Origin: a virus
Lineage: Duplodnaviria > Heunggongvirae > Uroviricota > Caudoviricetes
Virus record (IMG/VR): IMGVR_UViG_2917393062_000003
Coordinates: 1 to 57,747 of that record
Reading direction: 5' to 3' (one strand)
DNA: 57,747 bases
In this document: in pieces, positions 21,703 through 38,659 of the stretch
Layout: every line of letters starts with the position of its first letter
Numbering within the stretch: the stretch's first letter is position 1
Position numbers and translations under genes: made by a program
The notes under the pieces: model-generated
The model's database searches: none
The model's input: the letters and a program-made list of their open reading frames with translations, nothing else
What the model was told of the DNA's origin: nothing

Positions 21703-22185
21703 ATGTCAGGACCCCCGAAAACCCCGCCACGCCTGCATTTGATACGAGGCAACCCCTCAAAGCGCCCCGTTAAAGACCCAAAAAAAACCGCTAAAAAGGA
21801 TGAAAAAGGTCTCCCTAAAATTCCGCAACATTTAGGGTCGCAGGGGAAGTACTGGTTCAGGCGAATGGCGGAAGAACTGAATGCGGAAGGGATCATTTCT
21901 CAGCTTGATGCGCGTGCACTCGAGTTACTGGTGGAAGCCTACACCGAATACCGGCATCACTGCGAAACACTTGATGCTGAGGGTTATACCTACCGCACGG
22001 AAACGCAGAACGGTGATGTGCTGATTAAGGCACACCCGGCTGCTGCGATGAAAGCGGATGCCTGGAAGCGGATCCGGGCGATGCTTGCAGAGTTTGGTAT
22101 GTCACCGGCAAGCCGGGCGAAAGTAAATACCGCCGGATCGGATGATGTTGATCCGCTGGCGGAGCTTTTAAAAGCGAGAGACTGA
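21703..22185 (+). CDS. terminase small subunit
   Basis: 160 aa; paralogous to 36131-36487; directly upstream of terL. Confidence 0.7.
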   Translation: MSGPPKTPPRLHLIRGNPSKRPVKDPKKTAKKDEKGLPKIPQHLGSQGKYWFRRMAEELNAEGIISQLDARALELLVEAYTEYRHHCETLDAEGYTYRTETQNGDVLIKAHPAAAMKADAWKRIRAMLAEFGMSPASRAKVNTAGSDDVDPLAELLKARD

Positions 22186-23270
22186 TGGCAAAAGTGGCTG
22201 ACGGGATCCGCTACGCCGAACGTGTTGTTGCAGGAGAAATTGTCGCTGGCGAATTTGTCCGTCTGGCCTGCCAGCGTTTTCTTGATGATCTGAAGTACGG
22301 CGAAGAGCGGGGGATTTATTTCAGTGAACCCCGTGCGCAGCACATCCTGAATTTCTACAAATTTGTGCCCCATGTAAAAGGGGCGCTGGCAGGCCAGCCC
22401 ATTGAACTGATGGACTGGCATGTATTTATCCTCATTAATATTTTTGGTTTTGTCATTCCGCTGGTCAATGAAGAGACCGGGGAAGTTGTCATGCGCAGCG
22501 ATGGCAGCGGACGTCCGGTGATGGTGCGCCGGTTCCGGACGGCGTACAACGAAGTCGCCCGTAAAAACGCAAAATCAACCCTGTCATCGGGTATCGGCCT
22601 GTATATGACGGGGGCAGATGGTGAAGGCGGTGCTGAGGTGTATTCAGCCGCAACCACGCGTGACCAGGCCAGAATTGTGTTTGAAGACGCCAAAAATATG
22701 GTCAGAAAAGCCCGGTCGACACTCGGGCGGTTGTTTGATTTCAACAAGCTGGCGATTTACCAGGAGCAGAGCGCATCAAAATTTGAACCGCTTTCCTCGG
22801 ATGCAAACAACCTGGACGGTCTGAACATCCACTGCGCCATTATTGATGAGCTGCATGCTCATAAAACCCGTGACGTGTGGGACGTTCTGGAAACGGCAAC
22901 CGGTGCCCGTCTGCAGTCCCTTTTATTTGGCATCACCACGGCTGGCTTTAACAAGGAAGGGATTTGTTACGAGCAACGCGATTACGCCATCAAGGTATTG
23001 CGAGGCTATAACAGCGACGTGGAGGGCGCGGTAAAAGACGACTCCTACTTTGCAATTATTTACACGCTCGATGAGGGAGATGATCCGTTTGATGAAACGG
23101 TCTGGCAGAAAGCGAATCCCGGCCTGGGCATCTGTAAACGCTGGGATGATCTGCGTCGTCTGGCGAAAAAGGCGAAGGAGCAGGTCTCGGCACGGGTGAA
23201 TTTTTTCACGAAGAAAGTAACATCACGCCGTAACAGCAGTGCGGCCTGTCCTGATTTTTTTAGTAACTAA
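22185..23270 (+). pseudogene. terminase large subunit, N-terminal part, interrupted at about 23212 by the inserted element
   Basis: aligns with the first ~315 aa of the intact TerL at 36471-38132, then runs into 19 codons of element DNA and a stop. Confidence 0.8.
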
Positions 23271-23342
23271 ATGAAAGAAAAAGATTTTTTCTTTTTCGTC
23301 GTTTTTGTTTTTTCTGGATGGTTCTGGCTGTTTTCATCATTT

Positions 23343-23363
23343 GTGTATTGCACTGTGTATTGC
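23343..23363. repeat. 21-bp subterminal repeat (tandem TGTGTATTGC units), left copy; candidate integrase arm-type site
   Basis: GTGTATTGCACTGTGTATTGC here and GTGTATTGCGCTGTGTATTGC at 38553-38573, direct orientation. Confidence 0.5.
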
Positions 23364-23383
23364 AAAAACGGGTTATAAATCAC

Positions 23384-24607
23384 ATGGCGCTAAACAAACT
23401 GAGCGATAAAAAACTTCGTTCCCTGCTTGGGCGCAGGAGTGAGAGGCAGGAAACCATCGCTGATGGTAACGGGCTTTCGGTACGGGTCAGTAAATACGGA
23501 TGTGTTAGTTTTGTTTTCTTTTACAGACTGGCGGGAAGGGGAACCGCGCCCATCTGGCTGACACTTGGAAAATATCCTGATCTGAGTCTCAAATCAGCGA
23601 GAGAGATGCGCGATCAGTGTCGAACTTGGCTTGCGGAGGGCAGAGATCCACGGATTCAGATAAAAATTGAACGGGAAGCCACCTTGCAACCTGTTACCGT
23701 TCGTGAGGCACTTGAATACTGGCTTGATAATTATGCAATGGATAAGCGTAGGGGAGCAGAACATATCAGGCAGTGCTTTGGTAAACATATTTATCCGGTG
23801 ATTGGTCATGTACCACTTAGTGATTGCTCTATATCTATGTGGATCAAGTGTTTTGACAAAATAAAAAAAGTAGCACCTGTACAGGCCGGAGCTTTGTTGC
23901 GTATATCAAAACAGGCGCTTAAATTTTGTAGGGTAAGAAAATACGCGATTAGTCATGAAATTGATGATCTTGAGGTCTGTGATGTGGGAAAAAAGTCTGC
24001 GCGAAGAAGCAGGGTTTTAACAGATGATGAAATCAGAGATTTATGGCGAAGTATTAATACTGATTATGACAATCACGAATTATCATATGAAAACCGAATT
24101 ATTTTACGTTTCCTGGTAGTTTTTGGTTGTCGACTGTCAGAAGTATTACTGTCGTCCTGGGTAGAGTGGGATTTTGATAAGAAATTATGGCGCGTTCCCG
24201 CTGATCATAGCAAAAATGGCAGGGAAATAATCAGACCGATTCCTGATGGCATGTTTAACTGGTTAGTTACGTTAAAAAAAATAACAGGTAACAAAGAAAA
24301 TGTGATTGGGTTTGATATGCGTCAGTGTACGGCAAGCGTAACTATCGGTAAGACATGGAAAAGGATGAAACACTCGGAGAAATGGACGGCGCATGATATG
24401 CGAAGAGTGTTTGCCACAAAACTAAGTGATCATGGTTTTGAACATAATGTGGTTGAACAGTTGCTTGGGCACACATTAGGCGGTGTTGCCGGGGTTTATA
24501 ACAGAAGCCAGTATATGGACAGAAAAAAAGAAGCTATGAACTGGTGGTACGACTATCTGAATAAGCAAATTAGTGGTGACAGTAATGATTCAAATAGTTA
24601 CGCGTGA
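23384..24607 (+). CDS. P4-like tyrosine integrase (N-terminal arm-binding-type domain)
   Basis: about 408 aa from MALNKLSDKKLRSL; catalytic motifs RLSEV, HDMRRVFAT, GGVAGVYNRSQY. Confidence 0.85.
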   Translation: MALNKLSDKKLRSLLGRRSERQETIADGNGLSVRVSKYGCVSFVFFYRLAGRGTAPIWLTLGKYPDLSLKSAREMRDQCRTWLAEGRDPRIQIKIEREATLQPVTVREALEYWLDNYAMDKRRGAEHIRQCFGKHIYPVIGHVPLSDCSISMWIKCFDKIKKVAPVQAGALLRISKQALKFCRVRKYAISHEIDDLEVCDVGKKSARRSRVLTDDEIRDLWRSINTDYDNHELSYENRIILRFLVVFGCRLSEVLLSSWVEWDFDKKLWRVPADHSKNGREIIRPIPDGMFNWLVTLKKITGNKENVIGFDMRQCTASVTIGKTWKRMKHSEKWTAHDMRRVFATKLSDHGFEHNVVEQLLGHTLGGVAGVYNRSQYMDRKKEAMNWWYDYLNKQISGDSNDSNSYA

Positions 24608-24806
24608 AGAACTTGAAAATGATAAAACAATCGACAGGATGATTAAGGAAGATGAATGTGCATGGTTAACAGCTCTTGGCAGGAGACACAGAGCATTACT
24701 TGAAAAGGAAGGAAAATTTCCACGTAAAATATGTATTGGCCCACAAACAAAAGTCTGGCGCTTATCTGAGGTGCTGGAATGGGTAAAGGGTGAATGGAAA
24801 CCCTGA
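24585..24806 (+). CDS. AlpA-family regulator
   Basis: EGKFPRKICIGPQTKVWRLSEVLEWV pattern; start ambiguous (24573, 24585 or 24639). Confidence 0.6.
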   Translation: MIQIVTREELENDKTIDRMIKEDECAWLTALGRRHRALLEKEGKFPRKICIGPQTKVWRLSEVLEWVKGEWKP

Positions 24807-24830
24807 ACTAAATTAAATGAGATATAATCA

Positions 24831-24855
24831 ACCCGTCTTTTGGCGGGTTTTTTTA
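24831..24855 (+). terminator. intrinsic terminator-like hairpin abutting the second alpA-like gene
   Basis: acccgtc-tttt-ggcgggt followed by 7 T. Confidence 0.4.
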
Positions 24856-24869
24856 TAGGTGATATTTTT

Positions 24870-25148
24870 ATGCAAAAATTTATTTATCCTACACCCGAAG
24901 AACGCATTCAGATTCTGAAAGATCATGGCGAACCGTATGATCGCCGTATACGCGAACATGAGTGTGCCAATCGTACCGGGCTTTCAAGAAGCAGACGTTG
25001 GGTACTTGAACAGGAGGGAGCATTTCCTGCTCGTGCTCATTTAGGGAAAGTGTCTGTTTCCTGGTTGCTCTCTGATGTGCTCTGGTGGGTTATGCATCCG
25101 CCAGGAGTAAAGGAAGTAAACAGCCCATACAAAAACGCCAATAAGTAA
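24870..25148 (+). CDS. second AlpA-family regulator
   Basis: EQEGAFPARAHLGKVSVSWLLSDVLWWV pattern. Confidence 0.6.
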   Translation: MQKFIYPTPEERIQILKDHGEPYDRRIREHECANRTGLSRSRRWVLEQEGAFPARAHLGKVSVSWLLSDVLWWVMHPPGVKEVNSPYKNANK

Positions 25149-25158
25149 TTACCGACAA

Positions 25159-25186
25159 CCCCGCACCACGCAATGCGGGGTTTTTT
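25159..25186 (+). terminator. rho-independent terminator
   Basis: ccccgca-ccacgcaa-tgcgggg followed by 6 T. Confidence 0.65.
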
Positions 25187-25205
25187 GTATGTGAGGTAGA
25201 AAGTG

Positions 25206-25799
25206 ATGAATAAAAATATTGCCGCGACGGGCAAGGGTGACGCACGTCATATGAAAAAATTCTGTGATATTCGTGATCTGGTCGTTCTGCGCTTTGATAG
25301 TGTGAACGTTCGCGTGGTGTATCTGAACGGCGATCCGTGGTTTGTTGGCGCTGATGTGTGTGCGGCGCTGGAAATTAGCAACGTTACCGATGCTGTTTCA
25401 GTTCTGGATAGCGATGAGGTAATGACCCTAGCTTTAACCGAGGGTCATTCAGGTAAGCGTGGTGGTGCCAGAAGTTGGAATGTTGTATCAGAATCAGGTT
25501 TTTACAAGTTGATCGCCAGAAGTCGCAAAGCTGTTAATCCTAGCACGTTCGCCCATCGTTTCAGTAATTGGGTATTCAGAAATGTGATACCGGGTATCAG
25601 AAAAACGGGGGCTTATGGTATCCCGTGGGGCGCATTACAGGATTTTTCCCGCCGCAAAGAGCAATACCAGATAAGTGCCAGCGAGAAGGGGAGGGAGCTA
25701 CAGGCATGTAAGCGCAAAAAGCGTGAGCTGGAGGAAGAAGAAAAAAGGCTGATACGTGAATACCAGCCTGAGTTTTACTTTGGTGAGCGTATTCAGTAA
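25206..25799 (+). CDS. Bro-N domain protein (antirepressor-like)
   Basis: N-terminal Bro-N pattern FVGADVCAALEISNVTDAVS...FYKLIARS...FAHRFSNWV. Confidence 0.7.
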   Translation: MNKNIAATGKGDARHMKKFCDIRDLVVLRFDSVNVRVVYLNGDPWFVGADVCAALEISNVTDAVSVLDSDEVMTLALTEGHSGKRGGARSWNVVSESGFYKLIARSRKAVNPSTFAHRFSNWVFRNVIPGIRKTGAYGIPWGALQDFSRRKEQYQISASEKGRELQACKRKKRELEEEEKRLIREYQPEFYFGERIQ

Positions 25800-26449
25800 C
25801 CACACGCGGTGTTGATTATACGGTACATCGTGTTGACCGGGAAGCTACCCACCAGCAAGGCAAAATCTTCTGCTAAAAAATGACATATGACCAGTCGTCC
25901 GGAAAGCATGAAATTTTACAAAAATGGAAAATGAAGATTTTTATTGTGCTGGTGGGTAAAAACAAAAAGCGCCCCGTTACCGGAGCGCCATTGCGAACAA
26001 TTAACCTACTGCGCAAAAAATGAATCTGTGCGGGGGGATTATATCAACCGTGGTCGAAATGACCATAGTTGCAGGATAACAGGCAAAACAAAGGCCACCC
26101 GCTACGGTGGCCCCTCGACACAAGCTACACGTTATCCCCAACGCATGAGCATAACCAACAATGCCACATTTACGGCTGGTGGGCAAATCCTGAGCTGTTC
26201 TGTAATTACAGGAACTACGGCATTGTCGCGGTTAGGTTATGCTCAACTTTTTTTCAACTCTATATCGCAAGCACGCCGTAATATATCGCCTTCATTGCTT
26301 CCGCAAAGATTCTTTTTCTCGAAGCATGATTTTAAGATAAAGGCGGCGACAATTAGAACAATCGCACAGAGTGCACAATTTTTAAGTTTTGGCATCTTTT
26401 ACTCCTATGGTTGCCGCCGTGATTCCTCACACCACGGCGCTGATAGTAA

Positions 26450-26629
26450 TTATTCTGATTCTTTGGCCTTGCGGCGCTGGCGGCGTTTGATCTCGCCACG
26501 CATGGCTGTAACGATAAACTGCGCGTCTGTTTCGTTTTCCTCTTTGACCAAATTCATTTCGCTTAAAACTTCTAGAGGGATTCTAGCCGTTTTTTGTTGT
26601 GATTTGTTGTTGGTTGTACCCGTTGGCAT
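26450..26629 (-). CDS. small regulator, possibly ribbon-helix-helix type
   Basis: 59 aa from MPTGTTNNK; very strong SD AAGGAGG; divergent from the rightward operon. Confidence 0.45.
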   Translation of the reverse strand: MPTGTTNNKSQQKTARIPLEVLSEMNLVKEENETDAQFIVTAMRGEIKRRQRRKAKESE

Positions 26630-26691
26630 TACTAGCCTCCTTACTGTTAGGTGGCGTTCAGTATACGTAGAAAAAAAAAATAAAAAAAAGC

Positions 26692-26742
26692 TTGAAGTGC
26701 AAGTCACCTAAAAGTAGCATAATCCTCAAAGGTGACTTGCAC
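26692..26742 (+). promoter_or_regulatory. rightward promoter bracketed by a perfect 13-bp inverted repeat (operator)
   Basis: -35 TTGAAG, 17-nt spacer, -10 TAGCAT; inverted repeat GTGCAAGTCACCT (26697-26709) / AGGTGACTTGCAC (26730-26742); upstream A-tract. Confidence 0.5.
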
Positions 26743-26823
26743 CTTAAAGACAAAGCCCCGCAAGTGTCGTTACCACTCACAGGGCTTCTAACCACCAACG
26801 ATAACGAGAGTATCGAGGTAGCT

Positions 26824-27030
26824 ATGTTAAATCATACCACACACCCGCAAGGGCGGGACTCGCACAACCTGAATAAATATATCTGGCGTTTTATCGCTCT
26901 GAGCACGGCACAACCGCGCGTGATTACCATTGAGGCCACCAGTGAACAGGAAGCCTGTCAGCAATCACCGGCTGGCTGCGTGATGGTATTCGCCGCCCAT
27001 ATTCGTCAGGGGGTGCACCATGTGCAATAA
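26824..27030 (+). CDS. hypothetical small protein (satellite rightward operon gene 1)
   Basis: ATG 26824 with SD GAGG. Confidence 0.4.
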   Translation: MLNHTTHPQGRDSHNLNKYIWRFIALSTAQPRVITIEATSEQEACQQSPAGCVMVFAAHIRQGVHHVQ

Positions 27031-27256
27031 CACCCGTCCGGACTCAGCCGCCGAAGCTATCAGAACGCTAATGCACGCGCTGATTGATATTTCATGCACG
27101 GCAGCAACCGCAGAAAAACACATTACCAGAGAGACGGAATATGCAGGGGCGATAATCCCGCATTCGCTGGCATATGTGCAGCTTAGTGCCGACATGGCAC
27201 TGGATGAGGCAGGCAAAATTCTTACCGCAGATATCCAGGGGGGACGCCATGCATAA
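27020..27256 (+). CDS. hypothetical small protein
   Basis: overlapping, translationally coupled ORF. Confidence 0.4.
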   Translation: MCNNTRPDSAAEAIRTLMHALIDISCTAATAEKHITRETEYAGAIIPHSLAYVQLSADMALDEAGKILTADIQGGRHA

Positions 27257-27461
27257 TCATGAAGCGCACTTACCTGTAGTGCTGAATGTGCCATCAGATT
27301 ATACGGGGCGCGTACTGGTGTATCTGGAAAAAGGCCGGGTTAAATGCCAGTGCCGTTTAATGGAAAACGAATTTATCAGCACTCTTGCGGGATTTTCTGA
27401 AATGCTCACTAAATCTGGTGTTAGTGCAGACCAGTTACGCGGGGGCGATTATGCGAAATAA
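27249..27461 (+). CDS. hypothetical small protein
   Basis: ATG 27249 overlapping upstream stop. Confidence 0.4.
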   Translation: MHNHEAHLPVVLNVPSDYTGRVLVYLEKGRVKCQCRLMENEFISTLAGFSEMLTKSGVSADQLRGGDYAK

Positions 27462-27669
27462 ACGTGATATTGAAGACCTGGCATTTGAAGCCCTGCACTC
27501 TGCGAAAAAGATCAGGGAAGTCGTCAATATGTGGATGAACAGCCTTAGCACCGATGAATCCGATAGCAGAGAAGAAATTCTTATTTCTTTGTTGTTAGAC
27601 CTGGCAAATACACAGGTTTCTCTGACATCTGATATTGAGCTCGCCGCTAAAAAGCTGCCTCTGGAGTAA
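27451..27669 (+). CDS. hypothetical small protein
   Basis: ATG 27451 overlapping upstream stop. Confidence 0.4.
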   Translation: MRNKRDIEDLAFEALHSAKKIREVVNMWMNSLSTDESDSREEILISLLLDLANTQVSLTSDIELAAKKLPLE

Positions 27670-27799
27670 AAAAACATGAAAAAGAAAAAATTCTGGCTTT
27701 ACTGCCAGCGGTCACGCTCGGCCTGAAATCCGCCCCGGTGATATTTTCCGGGATAAATACGGCAGCACGATAACGATTAAAACTGTCGATGATTTTCGT

Positions 27800-27991
27800 G
27801 TGACCTATATCCGCGAAGGTTATGCGCATCCCTGCGTGTCGTCACATATGCGCTTTGACAGGGAGTTCACCTTGGTAAGCAAAGCACCACCAGCAGAATT
27901 AAGCGACATCGACAGAATCATGCGCGTTACAGGAATGGAACGCATTAAGGCAGTACGTGAAATTATTCGTGAACGGGGAAAGGCAAAATGA
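27800..27991 (+). CDS. hypothetical small protein (GTG start)
   Basis: 63-aa ORF ending in ATGA overlap with the replication gene; weak RBS. Confidence 0.25.
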   Translation: MTYIREGYAHPCVSSHMRFDREFTLVSKAPPAELSDIDRIMRVTGMERIKAVREIIRERGKAK

Positions 27992-30111
27992 AGCGCGCAC
28001 CAAACTTAAAGCACCAGCCAGCCGATAAAATGACGGAGGTTATCATCTTTGCGGGTAGTGATGCGTGGAGCCATGCGAAAGAGTGGCAGGAATGGGCAGG
28101 TAAGCATATTGCCGCCGACAATGTGCCGCCTGTCGTTCTGTCAGATGAACACCTGAAAGATATTACCGGTTATCAAATTATTGATGATAGTCGTCAGTGT
28201 GTGCGTGTTTACCGCGCAGGGCACATCACTGAACGTAGCCTTACACAGATCGTCACGTTGCTGGCTGTGGCTGGCGTGAAGACCGTATACGAATACGCGG
28301 GGATAACTGACACCAGCCCGGCGGATTTATCCGACCAGTTGCCTCGCCTCAAAGACGAATACGAGCGCGGGGAAAGTCTGGTGTTGCCCTTAAAGAAAAA
28401 AATCACAGAAAGCCCGGGTGATGATGAATTAAAGCCCCGCGTTGAAAGCCGCGCCGATGGTGTTTTCTGGGTAACGCCAAAAGTGGATAAGCAGTCAGGC
28501 GAAATTATCCGGCCTGAGACGTGGTTATGTTCCCCGCTTGAACTACTGGGAACGGGGACAATCGGTAAAGAGCATTACCGCGTGATGCGCTGGAAAAAAT
28601 TCGCAAATCATGAAGTCATCACAATGGCGGTTCCGTGCGGTGGCATTGGCGACCGTGACGGCTGGCGGCTGCTGAAAGACCACGGACTGAACGTAACAAC
28701 TAACGGCAAAAATAGGGCTATCCTGGCTGACTGGATGCAGTTAAGCGGAAGCCATGAGGAATGGCAGTTAAGCACAACAACGGGCTGGCATTTTGGCGCG
28801 TACATCATGCCGGACGGTTCGGTCATTGGTGATTGCGAAAAGCCAGTCCTGTTTACCGGAAAAACGGCTGCTGTTAATGGCTATTCCGTGGCAGGAACGG
28901 CGGAGGGTTGGCGCGATACCGTGGCGCGGCTGGCTGGTGGTAATCCGTCCATGATGCTGGGTGTGGCGGTATCGTTATCCGCACCATTAATCGGGCTGGT
29001 GGGTGCTGACGGCTTCGGGGTACATCTTTTCGAACAGTCATCGGCAGGGAAAACCACCACACAGAACATCGCATCCAGTTTATGGGGAGAGCCGGACGCA
29101 CAACGGCTGACCTGGTACGGCACGGCGTTAGGTATCGCCAACGAGGCCGAAGCACATAATGACGGGCTGTTACCCCTGGATGAAATAGGTCAGGCCGGAA
29201 ACGCGCGGGAGGTGTCCACGTCAGCCTATACGCTGTTTAACGGTTCCGGGAAATTACAGGGGGCAAAGGACGGCGGCAACAGGGAGATAAAACACTGGCG
29301 AACGGTGGCAATCAGTACCGGAGAAATGGACGTTGAAACATTCCTCAAAACGGAAGGGATAAAAGTCAAGGCGGGGCAGCTTGTCCGCCTGCTTAACGTG
29401 CCAATGGAAAAAGCCACACAATTTCACGAATACAGCACCGGAAAGGCACACGCAGACGCGTTAAAGGATGCCTGGACAGAAAATCACGGGGCGGCGGGGC
29501 GTGAATGGGTTAAATGGTTGGCAGACCATCAGCAGGAGGCAAAGGACACGGTAAGGGCATGCCGTGAACGGTGGCGCAACCTGATACCGGAGAGCTACGG
29601 CGAGCAGGTACACCGCGTGGGTGAGCGTTTCGCCATACTGGAGGCCGCGCTTGTGCTTTCCGGTCATGTTACTGGCTGGGATGTTCAGGCGTGCCGCGAT
29701 GCCATACAGCATAATTTTTATGCCTGGGTGAAGGAGTTCGGCACGGGTAACAGGGAGTTTAAACAGATGGTTGAACAGGCAGAGGCTTTTTTAGCGTCGT
29801 TCGGATTCAGCAGATACCTTCCGTGGCCCAACACCGACGAGCGTGATTTACCGATTAAAGAGCTTGCCGGATACAGAAAGGGGAGTATCAGAAACGAAGA
29901 TGACGAGTTCCGTTTTTACACGTTCCCGCATGTATTTGAGGGTGAGATAGCACAGGGATTTAATCCGTCTCACTTTGCCCGCGCGTTGAGTGCTGCCGGA
30001 ATGCTGGAAGCGGGTAACGATCGCCGTTACAAGAAAAAGGCGCTCGGCAAAATTGGGGGGAAGCAGCATGTTTTTTACGTGCTGATGTTCCAGCCTGAGG
30101 CAGAAGATTAA
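27988..30111 (+). CDS. satellite replication protein with P-loop NTPase (DUF927-like primase/helicase class)
   Basis: 707 aa; Walker A SSAGKTT; iterons immediately downstream; family name from memory. Confidence 0.6.
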   Translation: MKRAPNLKHQPADKMTEVIIFAGSDAWSHAKEWQEWAGKHIAADNVPPVVLSDEHLKDITGYQIIDDSRQCVRVYRAGHITERSLTQIVTLLAVAGVKTVYEYAGITDTSPADLSDQLPRLKDEYERGESLVLPLKKKITESPGDDELKPRVESRADGVFWVTPKVDKQSGEIIRPETWLCSPLELLGTGTIGKEHYRVMRWKKFANHEVITMAVPCGGIGDRDGWRLLKDHGLNVTTNGKNRAILADWMQLSGSHEEWQLSTTTGWHFGAYIMPDGSVIGDCEKPVLFTGKTAAVNGYSVAGTAEGWRDTVARLAGGNPSMMLGVAVSLSAPLIGLVGADGFGVHLFEQSSAGKTTTQNIASSLWGEPDAQRLTWYGTALGIANEAEAHNDGLLPLDEIGQAGNAREVSTSAYTLFNGSGKLQGAKDGGNREIKHWRTVAISTGEMDVETFLKTEGIKVKAGQLVRLLNVPMEKATQFHEYSTGKAHADALKDAWTENHGAAGREWVKWLADHQQEAKDTVRACRERWRNLIPESYGEQVHRVGERFAILEAALVLSGHVTGWDVQACRDAIQHNFYAWVKEFGTGNREFKQMVEQAEAFLASFGFSRYLPWPNTDERDLPIKELAGYRKGSIRNEDDEFRFYTFPHVFEGEIAQGFNPSHFARALSAAGMLEAGNDRRYKKKALGKIGGKQHVFYVLMFQPEAED

Positions 30112-30132
30112 CCCCTGTGTGAGGTGAAAAGT

Positions 30133-30257
30133 TGCGGGTTATGCGGGTTATCCTGTGTATAAGTGCATTAACTGTATGAATAAAAAGGAAATCAATAACC
30201 CGCACGTAACCCGCAAAACGGCAGTTATAACCCGCAAAAGTGCGATTATAACCCGCA
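30133..30257. repeat. iteron cluster (TAACCCGCA units in both orientations), candidate replication origin
   Basis: two inverted-orientation units at 30133-30150 and four direct units between 30196 and 30257. Confidence 0.6.
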
Positions 30258-30320
30258 GAATTTCACCGTAAGGGTGTAAACAAGCGTAACAATCAACGTT
30301 AAAACCGGAGAACAGACAGC

Positions 30321-30743
30321 ATGACAGCACAGATAGCAGCTTACGGGCGGCTGGTGGCTGACCCGCAGTTAAAGACCACCAGCAAAGGGACACAAATGGC
30401 GATGGCGAGTATGGCAGTTCCCCTGCCGTGCAGCCAGGCAGATGACGGAACGGCGACGATGTGGTTATCCGTCCTGGCGTTTGGCAGACAGGCCGACGCA
30501 CTGGCAAAACACCACAAAGGCGAACTGGTGAGCGTGGCGGGTAACATGCAGGTAAGCCAGTGGACAGGTCAGAACGGCGAAATGCGGCAGGGTTGGCAGG
30601 TCATCGCAGACAGCGTAATCAGTGCGCGAACGGCGCGACCGGGCGGCAAAAAAGGCCAGCAGGGCCAGGCTACTGACGCACTGAACAGGGCAAAACAACA
30701 GGCGGGGAATGATGATCCGTACGGGGACGGGATACCGTTTTAA
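30321..30743 (+). CDS. SSB-like OB-fold protein with acidic C-terminal DGIPF tip
   Basis: 140 aa; Gly/Gln-rich linker and C-terminal DDPYGDGIPF resembling the SSB DDDIPF tail. Confidence 0.55.
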   Translation: MTAQIAAYGRLVADPQLKTTSKGTQMAMASMAVPLPCSQADDGTATMWLSVLAFGRQADALAKHHKGELVSVAGNMQVSQWTGQNGEMRQGWQVIADSVISARTARPGGKKGQQGQATDALNRAKQQAGNDDPYGDGIPF

Positions 30744-30758
30744 GCAGTGAGGTACAGC

Positions 30759-31040
30759 ATGATTAAAGACAGCAAAGCGGAAGAACTGGAGGCTAAAGGG
30801 CTGTACCGGAGAGCGGCGGCGCGTTGGGCTGATGTTATGTGGCTGGTGAGCACTGACAAGGAGCGCGAACAGGTGGCAAAGCGTCGCGCGGAATGTATCC
30901 GTAAGGCAGCGCGCCAACCAGTCATACCGGATAATTTCGGAATACTGAAAGAGGCCATAAACCGCACACATACCGGGATGGGCTTACAGAAACCTGGCGG
31001 TGAGATGTTCAGGAACTACCCGAAAAAAAAGGATAATTGA
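30759..31040 (+). CDS. PerC-like regulator (tentative)
   Basis: MIKDSKAEELEAKGLYRRAAARWADVM; family assignment from memory. Confidence 0.4.
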   Translation: MIKDSKAEELEAKGLYRRAAARWADVMWLVSTDKEREQVAKRRAECIRKAARQPVIPDNFGILKEAINRTHTGMGLQKPGGEMFRNYPKKKDN

Positions 31041-31085
31041 TAACGGTTGTTAACTGTTTCTGGTATCGTGGCAGCAGGAGGAAAC

Positions 31086-31334
31086 ATGCCAGTGACATTT
31101 GAAGAAGTCCAGCAACATAAAAAGCTTCATGATTTTGATGATCTGGAAACCACGACAGTAAAAAAATATCGCCGGCTGCTTTCTTCCGATGCGTTATTTT
31201 TTGTGGATCATCATGATTTTCTGCGTAGCTCACTGACCGGGGAAATTTTCGCAACCAACCGTGAGCAGGTGGAAGCGATGATCGAATATCTGTGGAAAAT
31301 AAGGCGCAGAATGCGTGATCCCGTGAAACGGTAG
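31086..31334 (+). CDS. hypothetical protein
   Basis: ATG 31086 with SD AGGAGG. Confidence 0.45.
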   Translation: MPVTFEEVQQHKKLHDFDDLETTTVKKYRRLLSSDALFFVDHHDFLRSSLTGEIFATNREQVEAMIEYLWKIRRRMRDPVKR

Positions 31335-31343
31335 AATAATAAT

Positions 31344-31372
31344 GGCCTGGTATTTTCCAGGCCATTTTTTTT
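31344..31372. terminator. rho-independent terminator between convergent genes
   Basis: ggcctgg-tatttt-ccaggcc followed by 8 T. Confidence 0.65.
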
Positions 31373-31844
31373 AGAAGTCGATCTCTGTATCGCGATTAAA
31401 TTCATCGCTAAGGTAAAGTGCTTCGCTTGGGCATTTTCCGTTTTCCAGTAATGTTTCCCAGAAATCTTTATCGAAACACCCCTCAAGATACAGATAGCGG
31501 CAGATGTGAAGTAAATCACTTCGTGTCCATCCGTGCATGCTGCTACTTGTTACACCATATTCACTTTCTAGTTTATAGAATGTGAGCGCCTCCCGGTCGT
31601 GCCAGGCTTTGCACAGACGATCGTATATCTTTTTAGCTTTGTTTTTAGATGTGCCGAAAAACTCTTCGTAAATTTCATGTGGGCGAGCAGGAATACTTCC
31701 GTCGCCATCCTGCAAGAAAGGATAAACATCTGCCTCCCAGGCATACACGTAAGAATCGCTGAACTCATCATAGTGTTTACCAAGGTGGAGAATCTGCAAT
31801 CGTTGCTGAATGAACATTGCTTTTTTCAGTTCATTTTCTGACAT
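31371..31844 (-). CDS. opposite-strand cargo protein of unknown function (candidate accessory or defence gene)
   Basis: 157 aa; only minus-strand gene in the satellite core; noticeably lower GC than neighbours; own upstream region. Confidence 0.55.
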   Translation of the reverse strand: MSENELKKAMFIQQRLQILHLGKHYDEFSDSYVYAWEADVYPFLQDGDGSIPARPHEIYEEFFGTSKNKAKKIYDRLCKAWHDREALTFYKLESEYGVTSSSMHGWTRSDLLHICRYLYLEGCFDKDFWETLLENGKCPSEALYLSDEFNRDTEIDF

Positions 31845-32138
31845 AGTTCGTTCCTCCTGATTGACGAGCAGAAAATGTACGGAACAGCTTATTTATTTTT
31901 TCAGGTTTTGTAAATTATTTGTTCGTGGTTGTTCCAGGTTGTTCGGTGATTCTGGCTGATGTTTACATACTGATTTTTATGTATATGTTGGCGTGTGGCA
32001 CTCAGACGTGAGCCGCCACAATGCCGCCTGACCCCCTGCGCGATGCCGGGTTGATCTGCGAGATGCCGGGAGTGTCGGGCGGCGCTCCCTCCGTGTTGGT
32101 TTCACGTCCTGAATCTTAACCAATACGAGAAAACCTTC

Positions 32139-33284
32139 ATGAAGAAATTAATCGAACTCCGCCAGCAAAAAACCGCCCTGAAAAACCAGATGCGATCCCT
32201 GCTGGAAAAAGCCGACAGTGAAAACCGCAGCCTGAACGATGACGAGGGCAAACAGTTTGATGAACTGCGTGCAAAAGCCGATTCCCTCGACACAGAAATT
32301 TCCCGTCTTGAAGCTGTTGCGGATGAAGAACGTAACCAGCCAGGTGTTTCCGTCGAAGAGAAAATCACCAAAGACGAACTGCGCTCTTACATTCTGACCG
32401 GGGAAACCCGCAACCTGTCCGGCAGTGTCCCGGCTGATGGTGGTTATACGGTTATCCCGGAACTGAACAGAGAAATTATGCGTCAGCTTTCTGATGAATC
32501 GGTGATGCGTAAAATCTGTACCGTTAAAACCATTCACAGCAATGAATTTAAGCAACTGGTTTCTGCCGGGGGTGCGGTCGTTGAACACGGCGAAGAAGGT
32601 GCGGCACGTAACCAGACGGCAACACCAAAACTGAATGAAGTCAGTATCCGCCTGTATCCGATCTACGCTTACCCGAAAACCACTCAGGAAATTATCGATT
32701 TTTCCGAAGTCGATATTATGGGCTGGTTATCTTCTGAAATTGGCGACACTTTCGTTGATACCGAAGAAATGGATCTGGTTTCTGGTGATGGCGAGAAAAA
32801 AGCTAAAGGTTTCCTGGCTTTTCCGCGCACTGCGGATAACGACAAAACCCGTCCTTTCGGTACGCTCCAGACGAAAAAAGTTACTGGCAGTCTCAGCGCC
32901 GACATGCTGATTGACCTGAAATTTACGCTGCGCAATAAGTACCGCAAAAAAGCTGTATGGGTGATGAACTCAAATACAGCCGCCTCCGCACAAAAACTGA
33001 AAAATGCCACTGGTGATTACATCTGGCGCGATCGTTTACAGGCTGGTGATCCTGATTCTCTGCTGGGGCTTCCGGTTGAATATCTGGAATTTATGCCGGA
33101 CGGTGTGATTGCAGTAGGTGACTTTAAGCGCGGTTATTTCATCGTTGACCATGAAACCGGTACGCGTACCCGTCCGGATTTCAGCGAACCCGGATTCATT
33201 AACATCTATACCCAGAAATATCTGGGCGGTGGTGTGGTGGATTCGAACGCCATCAAGATTCTGGAAATTCAGGCTGGCAAGTAA
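32139..33284 (+). CDS. HK97-family major capsid protein (satellite)
   Basis: 381 aa; paralogous in architecture to prophage MCP at 41463-42686. Confidence 0.8.
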   Translation: MKKLIELRQQKTALKNQMRSLLEKADSENRSLNDDEGKQFDELRAKADSLDTEISRLEAVADEERNQPGVSVEEKITKDELRSYILTGETRNLSGSVPADGGYTVIPELNREIMRQLSDESVMRKICTVKTIHSNEFKQLVSAGGAVVEHGEEGAARNQTATPKLNEVSIRLYPIYAYPKTTQEIIDFSEVDIMGWLSSEIGDTFVDTEEMDLVSGDGEKKAKGFLAFPRTADNDKTRPFGTLQTKKVTGSLSADMLIDLKFTLRNKYRKKAVWVMNSNTAASAQKLKNATGDYIWRDRLQAGDPDSLLGLPVEYLEFMPDGVIAVGDFKRGYFIVDHETGTRTRPDFSEPGFINIYTQKYLGGGVVDSNAIKILEIQAGK

Positions 33285-33333
33285 TGAGCAAAGGGGGCTT
33301 CGGCCTCCTTTTTCAGCTTTATGGAGTACACCG

Positions 33334-33894
33334 ATGAAAAATACCGATTTTGAAATCCGTACATCTGAACTGACCGCCAGTGATAAAAAACTGGTGGGTT
33401 ATGCCGTTCGCTGGAACAGCCTTTCAGAAATTATCTGGGACGAATTCCGCGAACAGTTTACGCCGGGGGCTTTTGCTGACTATCTGGCGGCGGGTAATGA
33501 TGTGCGCTGCCTGTATGAGCATGACTATACCCGACTGCTGGGGCGCACCAAATCCGGAACACTGGTACTGACTGAGGACAACACCGGGCTACGTTTTGAA
33601 CTGACACCGCCTGATACCCAGCTTGGAAAAGATGTGCTTACGCTGGTGGAGCGTGGCGACATTACAGGAATGAGCTTTGGCTTTCGCGCATTATGCGAAG
33701 AATGGAATATCGCGCAAAAACCGTATCTGCGCACTGTTACCGCCGCAGAACTTCGTGAAATCACGATAACGTCAATGCCTGCTTATCCCGAATCTGGCGT
33801 GGAGATTGCCCGCCGTTCGTTGTTTGCACAGCACCCTGAATTACGCCCGACAGGAAATAATCGTCATCGCTGGGCTGAACTGGCGGGGTTGTGA
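33334..33894 (+). CDS. HK97-family prohead protease (satellite)
   Basis: about 186 aa from MKNTDFEIR with SD GGAG; paralog of 40798-41448. Confidence 0.75.
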   Translation: MKNTDFEIRTSELTASDKKLVGYAVRWNSLSEIIWDEFREQFTPGAFADYLAAGNDVRCLYEHDYTRLLGRTKSGTLVLTEDNTGLRFELTPPDTQLGKDVLTLVERGDITGMSFGFRALCEEWNIAQKPYLRTVTAAELREITITSMPAYPESGVEIARRSLFAQHPELRPTGNNRHRWAELAGL

Positions 33895-33895
33895 T

Positions 33896-35110
33896 ATGTG
33901 GTGGCCTTTTAGTCGTAAAAAAAGCGATCTGCGTAACCTGTCCATTGATGATTTTCTGGCGCTGTCCGGCGTACCGAATACCGGATCCGGAGAATATGTT
34001 TCTGCCGGGACGGCTGAATCATTGCCTGCTGTGATGAACGCGGTTTCTGTCATCGCTGAGGCGGTGGCCACGATGCCGTGTTATCTGTATCTGGTACGTA
34101 ATGACAAGGGCAGGGAGGCGCGGGAATGGCTGGACAGTCACCCGGTCGATATTCTGCTGAATGAGCAGCCTAATTCGTGCCAGACACCTTACCAGTTTAA
34201 ACGCACAATGATGCGTCACTGCCTGCTGAACGGTAACGCCTATGCGGTTATTGAGTGGGGGCGGGACGGTCAGCCAAAATCACTTCATCCTTATGCGCCG
34301 GGTTGTGTTGTACCGGAACGCACTGGCGCACACAAATACCGCTATACCATCACCGAACCCTATACAGGAACGGTGCGCACGTATTTACAGGAAGAAGTCC
34401 TGCATCTCCGCTATGCCTCGGATGATGGCTTTCTGGGACGTTCCCCCGTCACGATTTGCCGTGAGGCGCTGGGGCTTGGCCTTGCTCAACAGCGTCACGG
34501 AGCCAGCATTATGAAAGATGGCATGATGGCGGCAGGGGTTATTACGTCAGGCGAATGGCTGGACGGCGTGAAAGGTAAACAGGCATTAGACGCCCTGGAA
34601 CGCTACAAGGGGGCGAAAAATGCCGGAAAAACGCCAATCCTTGAAGGGGGCATGGATTACAAGCAACTGGGGATGAGTAACCAGGATGCGGAATGGCTGG
34701 CCTCCCGTCGCTTCTCCATTGAAGACATCGCCCGGATGTTCAACGTATCGCCTATTTTTCTGCAGGAATACAGCAACAGCACCTACAGCAATTTCAGCGA
34801 GGCAAGCCGCGCGTTTCTGACCATGACAATGCGCCCATGGCTGGCGAACTTCGAACAGCAAATTAAGGCCGCTTTGCTGGTGGCTTCTCCCGTACCTGGT
34901 ACCCGTTATCTGGTTGAGTTTGATTCAGCCGATTTATTACGCGCCACCCCTACCGAACGTTACGCCACGTATGAGAAAGGGATTAAGAACGGGATCATGA
35001 ATCCGAACGAAGCCCGCGAACGTGAGGGGATGCCGCCGCGTGAAGGTGGCGACGAATTCAGCCAGGCATGGAAGCAGACGGTGGAAATTAAAGGTGAAAA
35101 AGATGAGTGA
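33896..35110 (+). CDS. portal protein (satellite)
   Basis: about 404 aa from MWWPFSRKK; paralog of prophage portal 39579-40820. Confidence 0.75.
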   Translation: MWWPFSRKKSDLRNLSIDDFLALSGVPNTGSGEYVSAGTAESLPAVMNAVSVIAEAVATMPCYLYLVRNDKGREAREWLDSHPVDILLNEQPNSCQTPYQFKRTMMRHCLLNGNAYAVIEWGRDGQPKSLHPYAPGCVVPERTGAHKYRYTITEPYTGTVRTYLQEEVLHLRYASDDGFLGRSPVTICREALGLGLAQQRHGASIMKDGMMAAGVITSGEWLDGVKGKQALDALERYKGAKNAGKTPILEGGMDYKQLGMSNQDAEWLASRRFSIEDIARMFNVSPIFLQEYSNSTYSNFSEASRAFLTMTMRPWLANFEQQIKAALLVASPVPGTRYLVEFDSADLLRATPTERYATYEKGIKNGIMNPNEAREREGMPPREGGDEFSQAWKQTVEIKGEKDE

Positions 35111-35402
35111 AGAAAAAATTACACCTGATGAGGTCAGGGCACATCTTCGCCTTGATAACTTCTACGATGAAGGCGAACTTCTGAAAATGTATACCGATGC
35201 GGCGCTGGAAGCCTGCCAGAAGCATATCGGGAAACGTTTTGAAGACGGGCTGGAATTTACCCCGGCAATACGTGTTGGTTGCCTGATGTACATTGCTTTC
35301 CTGTACGAGAACAGGGAAGCGGTTTCACCTGTGGAGCAGTCTGAACTGCCTATGGCTATTTCTGCGCTCTGGTCGGTTTATCGTGATGTAGGGGTGTACT
35401 GA
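35103..35402 (+). CDS. head-tail connector (gp6-like) protein (satellite)
   Basis: 99 aa; HLRLDNFYDEGELLK pattern shared with prophage 42733-43056. Confidence 0.65.
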   Translation: MSEEKITPDEVRAHLRLDNFYDEGELLKMYTDAALEACQKHIGKRFEDGLEFTPAIRVGCLMYIAFLYENREAVSPVEQSELPMAISALWSVYRDVGVY

Positions 35403-35842
35403 TGCCGTGGCAACCATTAAGGCGATGCACTGAGCCGGGCTGTAATAAGCGCGTGAAGTCCGGCAAGTGCGAAGATCACAGGCGGGCTGCATGGCGTGCA
35501 GAGGATGCCAGACGGGGACACCGCCGCGCGCGCGGGTATTCCCGACAGTGGGACAAATACCGCGCCCTGTACCTGAGCAAAAACCCGTTATGCGTGCGTT
35601 GTCTGGCTAAGGGGATTTATACGCCAGCTCTTGTGGTGGATCACATCATTCCCATCAATGGCGGCGGTGATGTTCTCTTCTGGCCTGAGTGGAATCACCA
35701 GGCATTGTGCCAGACGTGCCACAACCGTAAGACGACACGGGAAGATCCAGCCACGAAAGCGAACCGTAAGGCGGGCATGTATCGCGAGCAGGAAGAACGG
35801 GCGGCACATCGTAACGACTGGATGTATGGCGATGATGACTGA
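35402..35842 (+). CDS. HNH endonuclease (satellite, terminase-associated)
   Basis: 146 aa; Cys-rich, VDHIIPINGGG...CQTCHNRKT motif. Confidence 0.8.
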   Translation: MPWQPLRRCTEPGCNKRVKSGKCEDHRRAAWRAEDARRGHRRARGYSRQWDKYRALYLSKNPLCVRCLAKGIYTPALVVDHIIPINGGGDVLFWPEWNHQALCQTCHNRKTTREDPATKANRKAGMYREQEERAAHRNDWMYGDDD

Positions 35843-36011
35843 ACAGGAGCAAAACAGGCTGATACGTGGACTGATAAGGCAGCGTGACACATGGAAGGCA
35901 CAGGAGACAGGGCACAAAGCCAACAGGACAGGGCGCACAGAACGCACCACAGCGAAGCGATTAACCGACCGTGACCGCGAGGTCATGGAATGTTTTCGCA
36001 ATCGCTGGTGA
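35826..36011 (+). CDS. hypothetical small basic protein
   Basis: 61-aa ORF overlapping HNH stop. Confidence 0.25.
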   Translation: MAMMTEQEQNRLIRGLIRQRDTWKAQETGHKANRTGRTERTTAKRLTDRDREVMECFRNRW

Positions 36012-36130
36012 GGCCGTCAGAGGGGGTGGGGGAGGTTTTCAGGACAAAACCGTCCCTGCCGGACACCGACCGCCTCCTCAAATTTTTGTGCACGGAAATT
36101 TTTTTGAAAATAATTGGGCGAAAAAAGAAC

Positions 36131-36487
36131 ATGGCAAGACCACCAAAAGCCCCCGCTTACCTGGATGAAATCGCGGTCAGGCAGTGGAAGGAAAAATCGC
36201 GCCAGCTTTCCGGGCGGGAAGACCTTACCCCCGCCGACTGGAGCAATCTGGAACTGTATTGCGTTAACTACTCCATATACCGCAAAGCCGTCGAAGACCT
36301 TGCGACGCGCGGCTTCAGCATTGTTAACAGTCAGGGCAGCGAGAGCAGAAACCCCGCCCTGAGCGCAAAGGCTGACGCGGAAAGAATAATGATCAAAATG
36401 GCTTCTTTGCTGGGTTTTGACCCGGTAAGCCGCCGCAGAAATCCACCGGAAACAGAGGAAGAGGACGAGCTTGACCGCCTGGCATGA
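36131..36487 (+). CDS. terminase small subunit (satellite)
   Basis: start MARPPKAPAYLDEIAVRQW; paralog of 21703-22185. Confidence 0.65.
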   Translation: MARPPKAPAYLDEIAVRQWKEKSRQLSGREDLTPADWSNLELYCVNYSIYRKAVEDLATRGFSIVNSQGSESRNPALSAKADAERIMIKMASLLGFDPVSRRRNPPETEEEDELDRLA

Positions 36488-38132
36488 GTACGCAGAAGGC
36501 GTAAAAAACGGCAAAATTACGGCCTGTAAACGACTGAAACAGGCCGTTAAACGGTATTTTTCTGACCTTGAAAACCCCCTTTACACGTTCGATCCGGAGG
36601 TCGTGGAGCGGTTTATTGCCTTTTCTAGGGTGTGTCCGCACGTAAAAGGCGCAATGCGCGGTAGCCCCATTGAGCTGGAGCCGTGGCAGCAGTTCGCCTT
36701 TGCCTGCATCCTGGGCTTTAAGGTTAAGGCCACCGGACGGCGCAAATACACCAGCGCATTCATTGAAGTACCGCGAAAAAATGCCAAATCCACGGTCGCC
36801 GCTATCCTGGCTAACTGGTTTCTGGTTATGGAACACGGGCAGCAGGATATTTACACCGCCGCCGTGAGTCGTGATCAGGCGCGGATCGTGTTTGATGATG
36901 CGCGTCAGATGTGCCTTTTATCCCGACCGTTACGAAAGCGGGTAAATATTCAGGCGCACAAGGTGATACACCCGAAAACCAACAGCCTGTTAAAGCCACT
37001 GGCAGCAAAAGCGGCAACCATTGAGGGGACAAACCCGAGTCTTGCCATTGTGGATGAATATCACCTGCACCCTGACAACGGGGTTTATTCCGCGCTTGAA
37101 CTGGGAATGGGGGCGCGTCCGGAGGGGTTATTATTTGCCATCACCACATCGGGGAGCAACGTTGTTTCAGCCTGTAAACAACACTACGACTATTGCTGCC
37201 AGATACTGGATGGTGAAGAGGTGAACGAATCCATGTTCGTGCTGATTTACGAGCTGGATGATGAAAGCGAGGTTGACGATCCGGCGATGTGGATAAAGGC
37301 GAATCCCAATATCGATGTTTCCGTCGATCGTGAAAAACTGGCCTCAACCATCCAGAAAGCGCGGGGTATTCCGTCGCAGTGGGTGGAAATGCTCACCAAG
37401 CGATTCAATATCTGGTGTCAGGGGGCTACGCCGTGGATGGGTAACGGTGCATGGGCGGAGTGCGCCGGAACGTTCGCGGAGGCGGATTTATACGGGCAGG
37501 AGTGCTACGCGGGGCTGGACTTATCATCAACCAGCGATATTTCCAGCGTGTGCTATGCCTTTCCGGTCGGTAAAAAGATTATGCTGGTTTCCCGTCACTA
37601 TCTGCCGGAATTTCAGCTACAGAACCCCGCCAATAAAAACCGCGCCATCTATCGCCAGTGGGTAAAGGCGGGCTGGATACGCACAACACCGGGTGACTGC
37701 ATTGATTATGACCGTATCCGTGATGACATCATGGCGGATGCAGAGAATTTCAATATCAGGCTGGTGGGCTTCGATACATGGAACGCCACGCACCTGAGGA
37801 CGCAGCTACAGGGGGCAGGATTTGAGGTGGAGCCGTTCCCGCAAACATACCTTCGTTTCAGTCCGGCGGCGAAATCGTTCGAAGTTTTTGTTAACCGGAA
37901 GGTGATTGTTCATCGTGGTGATCCGGTGCTGGCCTGGTCAATGAGTAATGTTGTGATGCAGAGTGACGCGAACGCCAATATCAAGCCGAACAAGAAAAAA
38001 TCATCCAACAAGATAGACCCGAGCGTTGCGGCGCTGATGGCGTTTGGCACATTCCAGGCAGAGCATGAGGAATTTGCATTCGATATGAGCGACAGCCACA
38101 AAGAGCGGCTTGCGGCGTTTGATGGTGTGTAA
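36471..38132 (+). CDS. terminase large subunit (satellite, intact)
   Basis: 553 aa; TTG start overlapping terS; PRKNAKST Walker A-like; homologous to both split prophage terL parts. Confidence 0.85.
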   Translation: MTAWHEYAEGVKNGKITACKRLKQAVKRYFSDLENPLYTFDPEVVERFIAFSRVCPHVKGAMRGSPIELEPWQQFAFACILGFKVKATGRRKYTSAFIEVPRKNAKSTVAAILANWFLVMEHGQQDIYTAAVSRDQARIVFDDARQMCLLSRPLRKRVNIQAHKVIHPKTNSLLKPLAAKAATIEGTNPSLAIVDEYHLHPDNGVYSALELGMGARPEGLLFAITTSGSNVVSACKQHYDYCCQILDGEEVNESMFVLIYELDDESEVDDPAMWIKANPNIDVSVDREKLASTIQKARGIPSQWVEMLTKRFNIWCQGATPWMGNGAWAECAGTFAEADLYGQECYAGLDLSSTSDISSVCYAFPVGKKIMLVSRHYLPEFQLQNPANKNRAIYRQWVKAGWIRTTPGDCIDYDRIRDDIMADAENFNIRLVGFDTWNATHLRTQLQGAGFEVEPFPQTYLRFSPAAKSFEVFVNRKVIVHRGDPVLAWSMSNVVMQSDANANIKPNKKKSSNKIDPSVAALMAFGTFQAEHEEFAFDMSDSHKERLAAFDGV

Positions 38133-38212
38133 CGGAATGGATGAGAGAGGACAATGCTCATTTAATGGAATAAATTTTCAGTATTACCGGTACCCACTTT
38201 CAGGGATGTTTT

Positions 38213-38370
38213 TGCGGGTTATTTGAGGGGGAGGTGCGGGTTATTTTGAATGTCTTGCGGGTTACATTCTGGCTGATATTTAAATACGTTGTTTTTTAAC
38301 GCATTGATATTAAAGAGTAAAAAATACTTAGCACGCGAAGATAACCCGCTAACCCGCATAACCCGCGCTG
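38213..38370. repeat. second iteron cluster (AACCCGC units), crr-like
   Basis: three rc units at 38213-38264 and three direct units at 38341-38370; same repeat unit as 30133-30257. Confidence 0.55.
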
Positions 38371-38552
38371 TTTTGTATATATATACGAAAAATTGCATTC
38401 AGGGGGGGATCGAAATTTCTACTGCCTCTTATCTCTTTGAGTGCTCACCTCGTCAGATTGTTACACACAAGAAATAAAAAATGCTTCGCGATGGTAGGTC
38501 GAATCACTGTATCAAAAAACGGTGTGTATCAGCATTAAAACAATACAGATAC

Positions 38553-38573
38553 GTGTATTGCGCTGTGTATTGC
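38553..38573. repeat. 21-bp subterminal repeat, right copy
   Basis: GTGTATTGCGCTGTGTATTGC; one mismatch to left copy at 23343-23363. Confidence 0.5.
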
Positions 38574-38659
38574 TTGATGATTTATAAAGACTGTTTTTTC
38601 ATGTTAAACGATTGATATACAGGTGATTTTAAAAAACTTGAAATATTCTCACGAAACAC

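Follow-up and report, generated by a model that had tools for sequence, protein, structure and literature searches.

A satellite inside a prophage carries, between its replication and packaging modules, one gene that is read against the direction of its neighbours. What is this gene, here called gene X, and what does it do? The question was addressed in a 57,747-nt stretch of viral DNA (the window), which is a prophage with a ~15-kb satellite inside it. The first-pass annotation of the window had taken X for cargo lying in a variable slot of the satellite. We examined the satellite, the slot, the protein family and its relatives elsewhere, and then weighed the possible functions of X.

The host satellite and its insertion site

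The limits and genes of the satellite were assigned from ORFs, Pfam matches, att cores and the PGAP annotation of a 99.3%-identical locus of E. coli strain KFu019, which was used for naming. The main features are as follows.

23199..38655, plus strand: capsid-forming PICI-type satellite (cf-PICI)
23199-23212 and 38642-38655: att-like 14-bp core AAT(T/A)TT(T/C)TCACGAA, at both satellite junctions
23318-24607: integrase
27988-30111: DUF927 primase
30321-30743: SSB gene (Pfam match)
30747-31040: PerC-family regulator gene (Pfam match)
31086..31334, plus strand: 82-aa ORF, phrog_1957 (PHROGs match), convergent with X and also found in satellites without X
32139..33284, plus strand: gene of the HK97-type major capsid protein, divergent from X, opening the packaging operon

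The genes follow one another in the order int, regulatory genes, DUF927 primase, SSB, PerC, small ORF, X, HK97 capsid, protease, portal, connector, HNH, TerS and TerL; the last of the packaging genes ends at 38132. With its full gene set, its lack of tail and lysis genes and its size of ~15 kb, the element is a cf-PICI. It is also syntenic with 30 cf-PICI-sized viral contigs, and an AlpA regulator is present in homologous elements.

The terL gene of the prophage is split by the satellite into two fragments (22185-23270 and 38660-39385). The protein sequence breaks off at ...VNFFTKK in the N-terminal fragment and is taken up again with ...TKHMNVWVTAESAWMD in the C-terminal one; in strain KFu019, PGAP likewise annotates terL as these two fragments. 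Since the 14-bp core lies at both junctions, excision would restore terL. Sitting in an essential packaging gene of its probable helper, the satellite could in this way couple helper packaging to its own excision.

Gene X, its cassette and the variable slot

The surroundings of X in the window contain the following features.

31329..31893 (564 bp), no strand assigned: variable cassette, made up of a terminator, X and ~50 bp of 5' sequence; from the alignment of filled and empty loci
31341..31366, no strand assigned: hairpin terminator of 10 pairs (6 G-C) with a T-run, between the convergent 82-aa ORF and X; it serves both and is part of the cassette
31371..31844, minus strand: gene X, an ATG ORF of 157 aa; from the ORF list, PGAP and homologs
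31853..31858, minus strand: Shine-Dalgarno sequence AGGAGG of X, 8 nt 5' of the ATG; read from the sequence
31914-31909 and 31891-31886, minus strand: possible X promoter with -35 TTTACA, 17-nt spacer and -10 TAAGCT; found by eye
31894..32138, plus strand: capsid-operon leader, common to satellites without X; from the alignment of filled and empty loci
31919..31944, plus strand: three TTGTTC repeats at exact 10-bp intervals, which may serve the capsid operon as an operator, ~200 bp 5' of the capsid gene
31962 (TTTACA) and ending at 31989 (TATGTT), plus strand: promoter-like site within the capsid-operon leader

The 157-aa minus-strand ORF described in the first-pass annotation is a real gene, because it is conserved in 19 homolog clusters (156-158 aa, 53-63% identity, 35 invariant columns); the same CDS is annotated by PGAP in the 99.3%-identical E. 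coli locus. The terminator that was said to insulate it was recovered as a 10-bp-stem hairpin with a T-run. Other parts of the description had to be narrowed. Between the replication and packaging modules X is indeed the sole minus-strand gene, but PGAP places two further small minus-strand genes in the regulatory region of the element. The GC content of X is lower than that of the element (42.6% vs 49.8%), but only modestly so: among 474-bp windows it ranks at the 10th percentile, and its value is close to those of the integrase (42.0%) and of the small ORF next to it (44.2%), which makes composition a weak argument. The upstream region of ~300 bp credited to X is mostly not its own, as 245 of its 294 bp are the shared capsid-operon leader and ~50 bp are specific to the cassette.

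The -35 of the possible X promoter falls in the shared leader and its -10 in the cassette; a sigma-70-like consensus scan of the minus strand scored no site for X. The TTGTTC array adjoins this -35 at a distance of 5 bp and stands just upstream of the promoter-like site of the capsid operon. It occurs once in the window (0 expected by chance); 38 related loci also have one copy, equally far from the capsid gene. The array is probably an operator for an activator of the packaging operon.

The limits of the cassette follow from an alignment of the locus with three X-free satellites of E. coli, in which filled and empty elements differ at ~31329-31893 and nowhere else, a clean presence/absence polymorphism. 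At this position the empty satellites have ~36 bp with a different terminator, and the remaining 245 bp to the capsid start are kept as leader in every aligned element. Among complete E. coli genomes, the cassette is present in 9 of 5,426 and the flanks in 768 of 5,426. One carrier, LH50-c, has another replication module and another capsid module, and the same cassette at 98.6% identity.

A comparison of the slot in related elements had been proposed in the first-pass annotation. For this survey, 50 related elements were sampled via their capsid protein, and the slot proved polymorphic. Its content was distributed as follows.

31/50 elements: empty
3/50 elements: X
8/50 elements: a minus-strand gene for an unrelated protein of 166-170 aa that has a hydrophobic helix at its C terminus, e.g., L076:3208-3714 (-) and L091:3222-3722 (-)
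3/50 elements: the 166-170-aa gene with a 252-258-aa gene, e.g., L092:2440-3765 (-)
2/50 elements (L095/L096): a 395-aa SEC-C-motif protein, L095:2583-3770 (+)
3/50 elements: flank not found or upstream sequence too short

Apart from the SEC-C motif, the alternative cargoes gave no match in PADLOC and Pfam, and they are candidates for further defence genes. The slot ahead of the 82-aa ORF is also variable: a ProQ/FinO-family gene (L025:986-1528) replaces PerC in some similar satellites, and others have neither.

The search of a viral contig collection for X yielded 36 loci, of which 30 are cf-PICI-like, most of them on contigs of 10-18 kb. In these 30 loci X occupies the same slot in the same orientation, and in all but one it starts 273-294 bp from the capsid start. 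Annotated satellites of Edwardsiella, Serratia, Rouxiella and Salmonella carry X in the same slot as well. Pairwise identity of X was then compared with that of capsid, portal, protease and terminase in 23 elements, and the correlation was not significant (Spearman ~0.1 or less); in the same set, terminase and portal identities gave a Spearman coefficient of 0.84. This uncoupled divergence indicates that X has repeatedly been exchanged into one permissive slot as cargo, and co-divergence with the capsid module, a pattern expected of a core function, was rejected on the same figures. A two-gene toxin-antitoxin pair with the 82-aa ORF was rejected too, because that ORF is also present in empty elements.

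Taken together, the clean indel, the alternative cassettes, the uncoupled divergence and the rarity in E. coli (9 genomes against 768 with the flanks) agree with the original proposal of cargo in a variable slot. The content of the slot varies among syntenic elements, as in a PICI accessory or immune hotspot downstream of pri. The region adjoining pri has been described as an additional PICI immune hotspot that holds immune genes (He et al., PMC11364771). That PICIs carry accessory or immune cassettes at this position is thus already known.

The X protein and its relatives

The X protein has a molecular mass of 18.7 kDa, a pI of 4.9 and no membrane segment. Acidity is common in the family, with a pI below 5.5 in 82% of the solo members. 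The first-pass annotation had recognized no motif in it, and our searches agree: X, together with 88 diverse relatives, gave no match in Pfam, PADLOC, PHROGs and NCBIfam, and X gave none among PDB sequences. In PADLOC-DB 2.0.0, which covers systems described up to 2023, 0 families were found for X at E up to 1. Structure prediction, also proposed earlier, produced a confident AlphaFold2 model from an alignment of 19 sequences; it is all-alpha, with nine helices (pLDDT 89.9, pTM 0.86), and a model from an independent distant subfamily has the same helix pattern for the X domain. Foldseek found no match to the X model in PDB and viral models, and a winged-helix match is weak and partial. The X family is not a known one: it is sizeable, yet has neither a curated model nor a solved or recognizable fold. 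The RefSeq accession of X was not found in the literature, and X goes unmentioned in the cf-PICI papers found.

The near-invariant residues of the family are mostly aromatic or aliphatic, with E93, R108 and R116 in addition, and no catalytic motif stands out in the alignment. A HEPN RNase (Rx4-6H) was considered and rejected, since the family does not conserve the Rx4H seen in the window protein, H113 being variable. In comparison with DNA mimics of the Ocr/ArdA type, X is acidic; it has no sequence or fold match, was found in none of the 50,697 phage genomes and has few plasmid copies.

A profile search of 1.84 billion representatives gave 348 clusters at E up to 0.001 (234 up to 1e-10). The 348 clusters, formed at 50% identity, are widespread in Proteobacteria. 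Among the best 150 of the 348 representatives, 107 are solo proteins of 135-170 aa without a DNA-binding domain, and 28 (~19%) have an N-terminal extension. When ten extended proteins were scanned, eight matched RHH/CopG, Phd/YefM, MazE/AbrB or wHTH (HTH_43), three of them below the Pfam cut-off; one further family member matches Aca2/YdiL. The RHH, Phd/YefM, MazE/AbrB and wHTH domains are DNA-binding domains typical of type II antitoxins. The window protein itself has no N-terminal DNA-binding domain in Pfam.

A metagenome scan for RHH-X returned 73 ORFs, which comprised ~40 RHH-YfbU fusions, 5 full-length RHH-X proteins and, for the rest, mostly short RHH-only ORFs. Both fusions carry the RHH signature ERFELRLD...W...PSRSEAvRRL, and the YfbU fusion is far commoner than the X fusion. 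The two RHH domains are homologous (hhalign probability 99.6%, E 8e-24), and the C-terminal domains X and YfbU did not align in the profile comparison. The YfbU assignment was confirmed against PDB 1WPB and 4LR3. In the RHH-X model, the second RHH helix continues directly into the first long helix of X; judging from this model, an RHH dimer would carry two X domains. Solitary RHH-YfbU fusions (~235-240 aa) form a large family in soil and water metagenomes (L139-L210, e.g., L141:1606-2316), an architecture apparently not discussed in the YfbU and Kamadhenu papers found.

A conserved neighbour was sought beside the 5 RHH-X and 40 RHH-YfbU metagenomic genes, and none was found: the flanks are mutually unrelated, and genes flanking RHH-YfbU are often on the opposite strand. 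Nor was a conserved neighbour or partner gene of the solo forms found among the homolog loci compared. The X family and RHH-YfbU therefore consist of self-contained one-gene modules and not of halves of toxin-antitoxin pairs.

Outside cf-PICIs, homologs of X were found in several kinds of surroundings. In Raoultella planticola, a satellite of another type (L005, 1-20474) carries a homolog beside a DUF2971/PDC-S31 gene. This satellite has integrase, AlpA, AntA, primase and tail-fibre-type genes (Gp53-like_C, Caudo_TAP) and no capsid genes; it is nested in the morphogenesis operon of a lambda-like prophage, with the portal gene on one side and the genes for S49 protease, decoration and capsid proteins on the other. 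Other homologs lie in a CbtA/CbeA-type genomic island of Enterobacter and, in Vibrio and in a sequencing-run assembly, on plasmid-like contigs with conjugation genes (TraG/TraH). A 35-kb plasmid of Pleionea (L028) has two copies, at 8001-8456 and 10170-10637. They flank an opposite-strand gene of 371 aa, and the plasmid also has restriction-modification and RelE/ParE genes. Homologs adjoin a short pAgo system in Citrobacter, a TIR protein gene in Phytobacter and a DUF4238 gene in Shewanella; an RHH-X gene of Microvirga stands beside a PD-T4-5/AbiD-like gene and DISARM, and another RHH-X gene beside AbiJ_NTD4. Two relatives (L020, L030) lie among housekeeping genes. In a tblastn search with three diverse family members, 50,697 phage genomes gave no match. 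On a 12-kb viral contig (L065:561-1055), a homolog follows on the opposite strand just after a Mu-like head module (protease, major head subunit). The contig is related to Shewanella phage MuM16-1, which itself lacks X, and may be a prophage edge or another capsid-encoding satellite.

Possible functions and likeness to known systems

By analogy with known systems, X is best explained, tentatively, as an autonomous one-gene anti-phage protein that acts by binding. This reading draws on the hotspot position, the defence-type neighbourhoods of the homologs, the independence of the gene from any partner, the lack of matches in phage genomes and the parallels with YfbU, DUF2971 and SEC-C proteins. 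The RHH domain is shared with YfbU fusions and the C-terminal domains differ, so that X fills the place of a known defence domain. Being transcribed against the operon flow of the satellite, X would be expressed while the satellite is integrated. Its product, predicted to be soluble, acidic and all-alpha and with no sign of a catalytic site, would bind a phage or host protein, either in sensing of the abortive-infection type or to interfere with assembly, and would protect the host, and hence the satellite and its helper prophage, against other phages. In the relatives with RHH, Phd, MazE or wHTH domains, DNA binding would be joined to the X module, probably so that a dimer regulates its own gene. 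Several points speak against a role in defence: X has no homology link to defence and no PADLOC match, some relatives (L020, L030) lie among housekeeping genes, X is rare in E. coli (9/5,426), and no minus-strand promoter was scored. The N-terminal partners, DNA-binding domains of type II antitoxins, would fit a neutralizer or a one-component regulator equally well. An argument from neighbourhood in defence islands also selects for toxin-antitoxin, regulatory and counter-defence genes.

The housekeeping surroundings of some relatives would suit a different role, host-directed or selfish: X could be a factor in stress or fitness, or a stabilizer resembling a death protein that penalizes loss of the element, with no direct part in phage conflict. 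The first report on YfbU, which replaces X behind the same RHH, described it as a requirement for MazF-dependent cell death (cited in PMC11381338 and PMC13064643), and X has no sequence feature that points to a specific activity. Most contexts of the family are nevertheless mobile elements and defence-type neighbourhoods, and the slot holds other defence-like cargo; we consider this reading unlikely. The antitoxin-type domains found in most of the scanned extensions (~19% of the best 150 being extended) bear on the idea that X is an orphan antitoxin-like neutralizer, a counter-defence or anti-addiction gene with a toxin-binding domain. A toxin-free X on satellites and plasmids, elements that must establish in new hosts, would then disarm a host abortive-infection or toxin-antitoxin system that kills the cell at entry of the element or when capsids are made. 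The acidic, apparently non-enzymatic protein and the Abi-type genes (AbiD-like, AbiJ_NTD4) beside some fused forms are consistent with it. On the other side, no conserved toxin partner stands beside the fused or solo forms, whose neighbours are mutually unrelated and often on the other strand, and the same RHH is mostly fused to YfbU, which in the one tested case is a defence protein and not an antitoxin. Phage genomes, in which counter-defence genes are usually frequent, gave no copy of X (0 of 50,697). This explanation appears distinctly unlikely. A bolder version of it would be quite improbable: a satellite-borne counter-defence protein, with an orphan antitoxin-like binding domain of a fold not seen in PDB, that switches off host abortive-infection or toxin systems, for example those triggered by the satellite's own HK97-type capsid proteins. 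If it held, a portable antidote, free of its poison, would travel on satellites, plasmids and islands, and X and YfbU would represent helical domains of one class, able to be attached behind DNA-binding domains of the antitoxin type.

The fixed position and orientation of X, 273-294 bp from the capsid start in the loci of the viral collection (30/36), raise the question of whether X regulates or modulates the satellite or helper cycle, e.g., by acting at the control region of the capsid operon or on a protein of the helper, so as to tune induction or packaging and not defence. A gap of 5 bp separates the possible -35 of X from the conserved triple TTGTTC array ahead of the capsid promoter-like site, and relatives carry DNA-binding domains. 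Most related satellites nevertheless lack X and keep the same leader, so the satellite cycle does not need it. X is also found on plasmids, genomic islands and chromosomes without capsid genes, its divergence is uncoupled from that of the packaging genes, and the winged-helix match is weak and partial, with no match in Foldseek. Regulation by X is accordingly a highly improbable reading.

Phage satellites are recognized carriers of bacterial immune genes, and their hotspots have been productive for new systems. X is a compact and testable candidate among such genes: a single 157-aa gene with a confident predicted structure, matching no curated family or solved fold and mobile between satellites, plasmids and islands. 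The pairing of X and YfbU with antitoxin-type DNA-binding domains suggests, by analogy, that one-gene modules of this sort form a larger class. Should X act in defence, a further family, probably with a novel sensing mechanism, would join the known systems; should it be an orphan neutralizer, satellites would be shown to carry counter-defence.

Among known systems, type II antitoxins with a globular neutralizing domain (Panacea/PanA, PMC8832971) resemble the X family in that a constant helical domain of ~150 aa is combined with interchangeable N-terminal DNA-binding domains on mobile elements. They differ in that the X cassette has no adjacent toxin gene and no conserved partner is found elsewhere. 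X has no DUF4065/Panacea match, and 107 of the best 150 representatives are without a DNA-binding domain. A type II antitoxin beside, and co-transcribed with, its toxin was rejected, as the cassette consists of one gene and the homologs, fused or solo, share no conserved neighbour. The likeness to Enterobacterales cf-PICIs, in full gene set, absence of tail and lysis genes and size of ~15 kb, is that of the element and not of X, which is an optional passenger in a small minority of them.

The accessory region that follows pri in PICIs is also where the Tai (tail assembly inhibition) genes lie (He et al. 2024, PMC11364771). Tai proteins are defined by a block of phage tail assembly, with escape mutations in the central tail fibre. 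X resembles them in the kind of slot it occupies in Gram-negative PICIs, in being a single small gene with no recognizable domain that escapes PADLOC and DefenseFinder, and in its presumed expression in the integrated state. In sequence X is unrelated to Tai: hhalign of the 88-member profile with TaiEcA (phi80 orf63) gave a probability of 0.1% over 11 columns. The tagged TaiEcA is also larger (26.1 kDa vs 18.7 kDa for X), and Tai genes occur mostly in prophages, whereas X is in none of the 50,697 phage genomes.

The lactococcal plasmid systems Kamadhenu (YfbU), Aristaios (DUF2971) and Rugutis (SEC-C) are antiphage systems of one gene each, and Kamadhenu and Aristaios have abortive-infection phenotypes (PMC11381338). 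All three validated domain types are found around X, namely YfbU behind the same RHH, DUF2971 as a satellite neighbour and a SEC-C protein in the same slot, which fits a role of X in defence. X itself is not YfbU (PF03887; fold of PDB 1WPB), as Pfam, fold and profile comparisons gave no match. What X shares with Kamadhenu is the form of a small, all-helical, stand-alone protein, and both domains occur behind homologous RHH domains as solitary genes.
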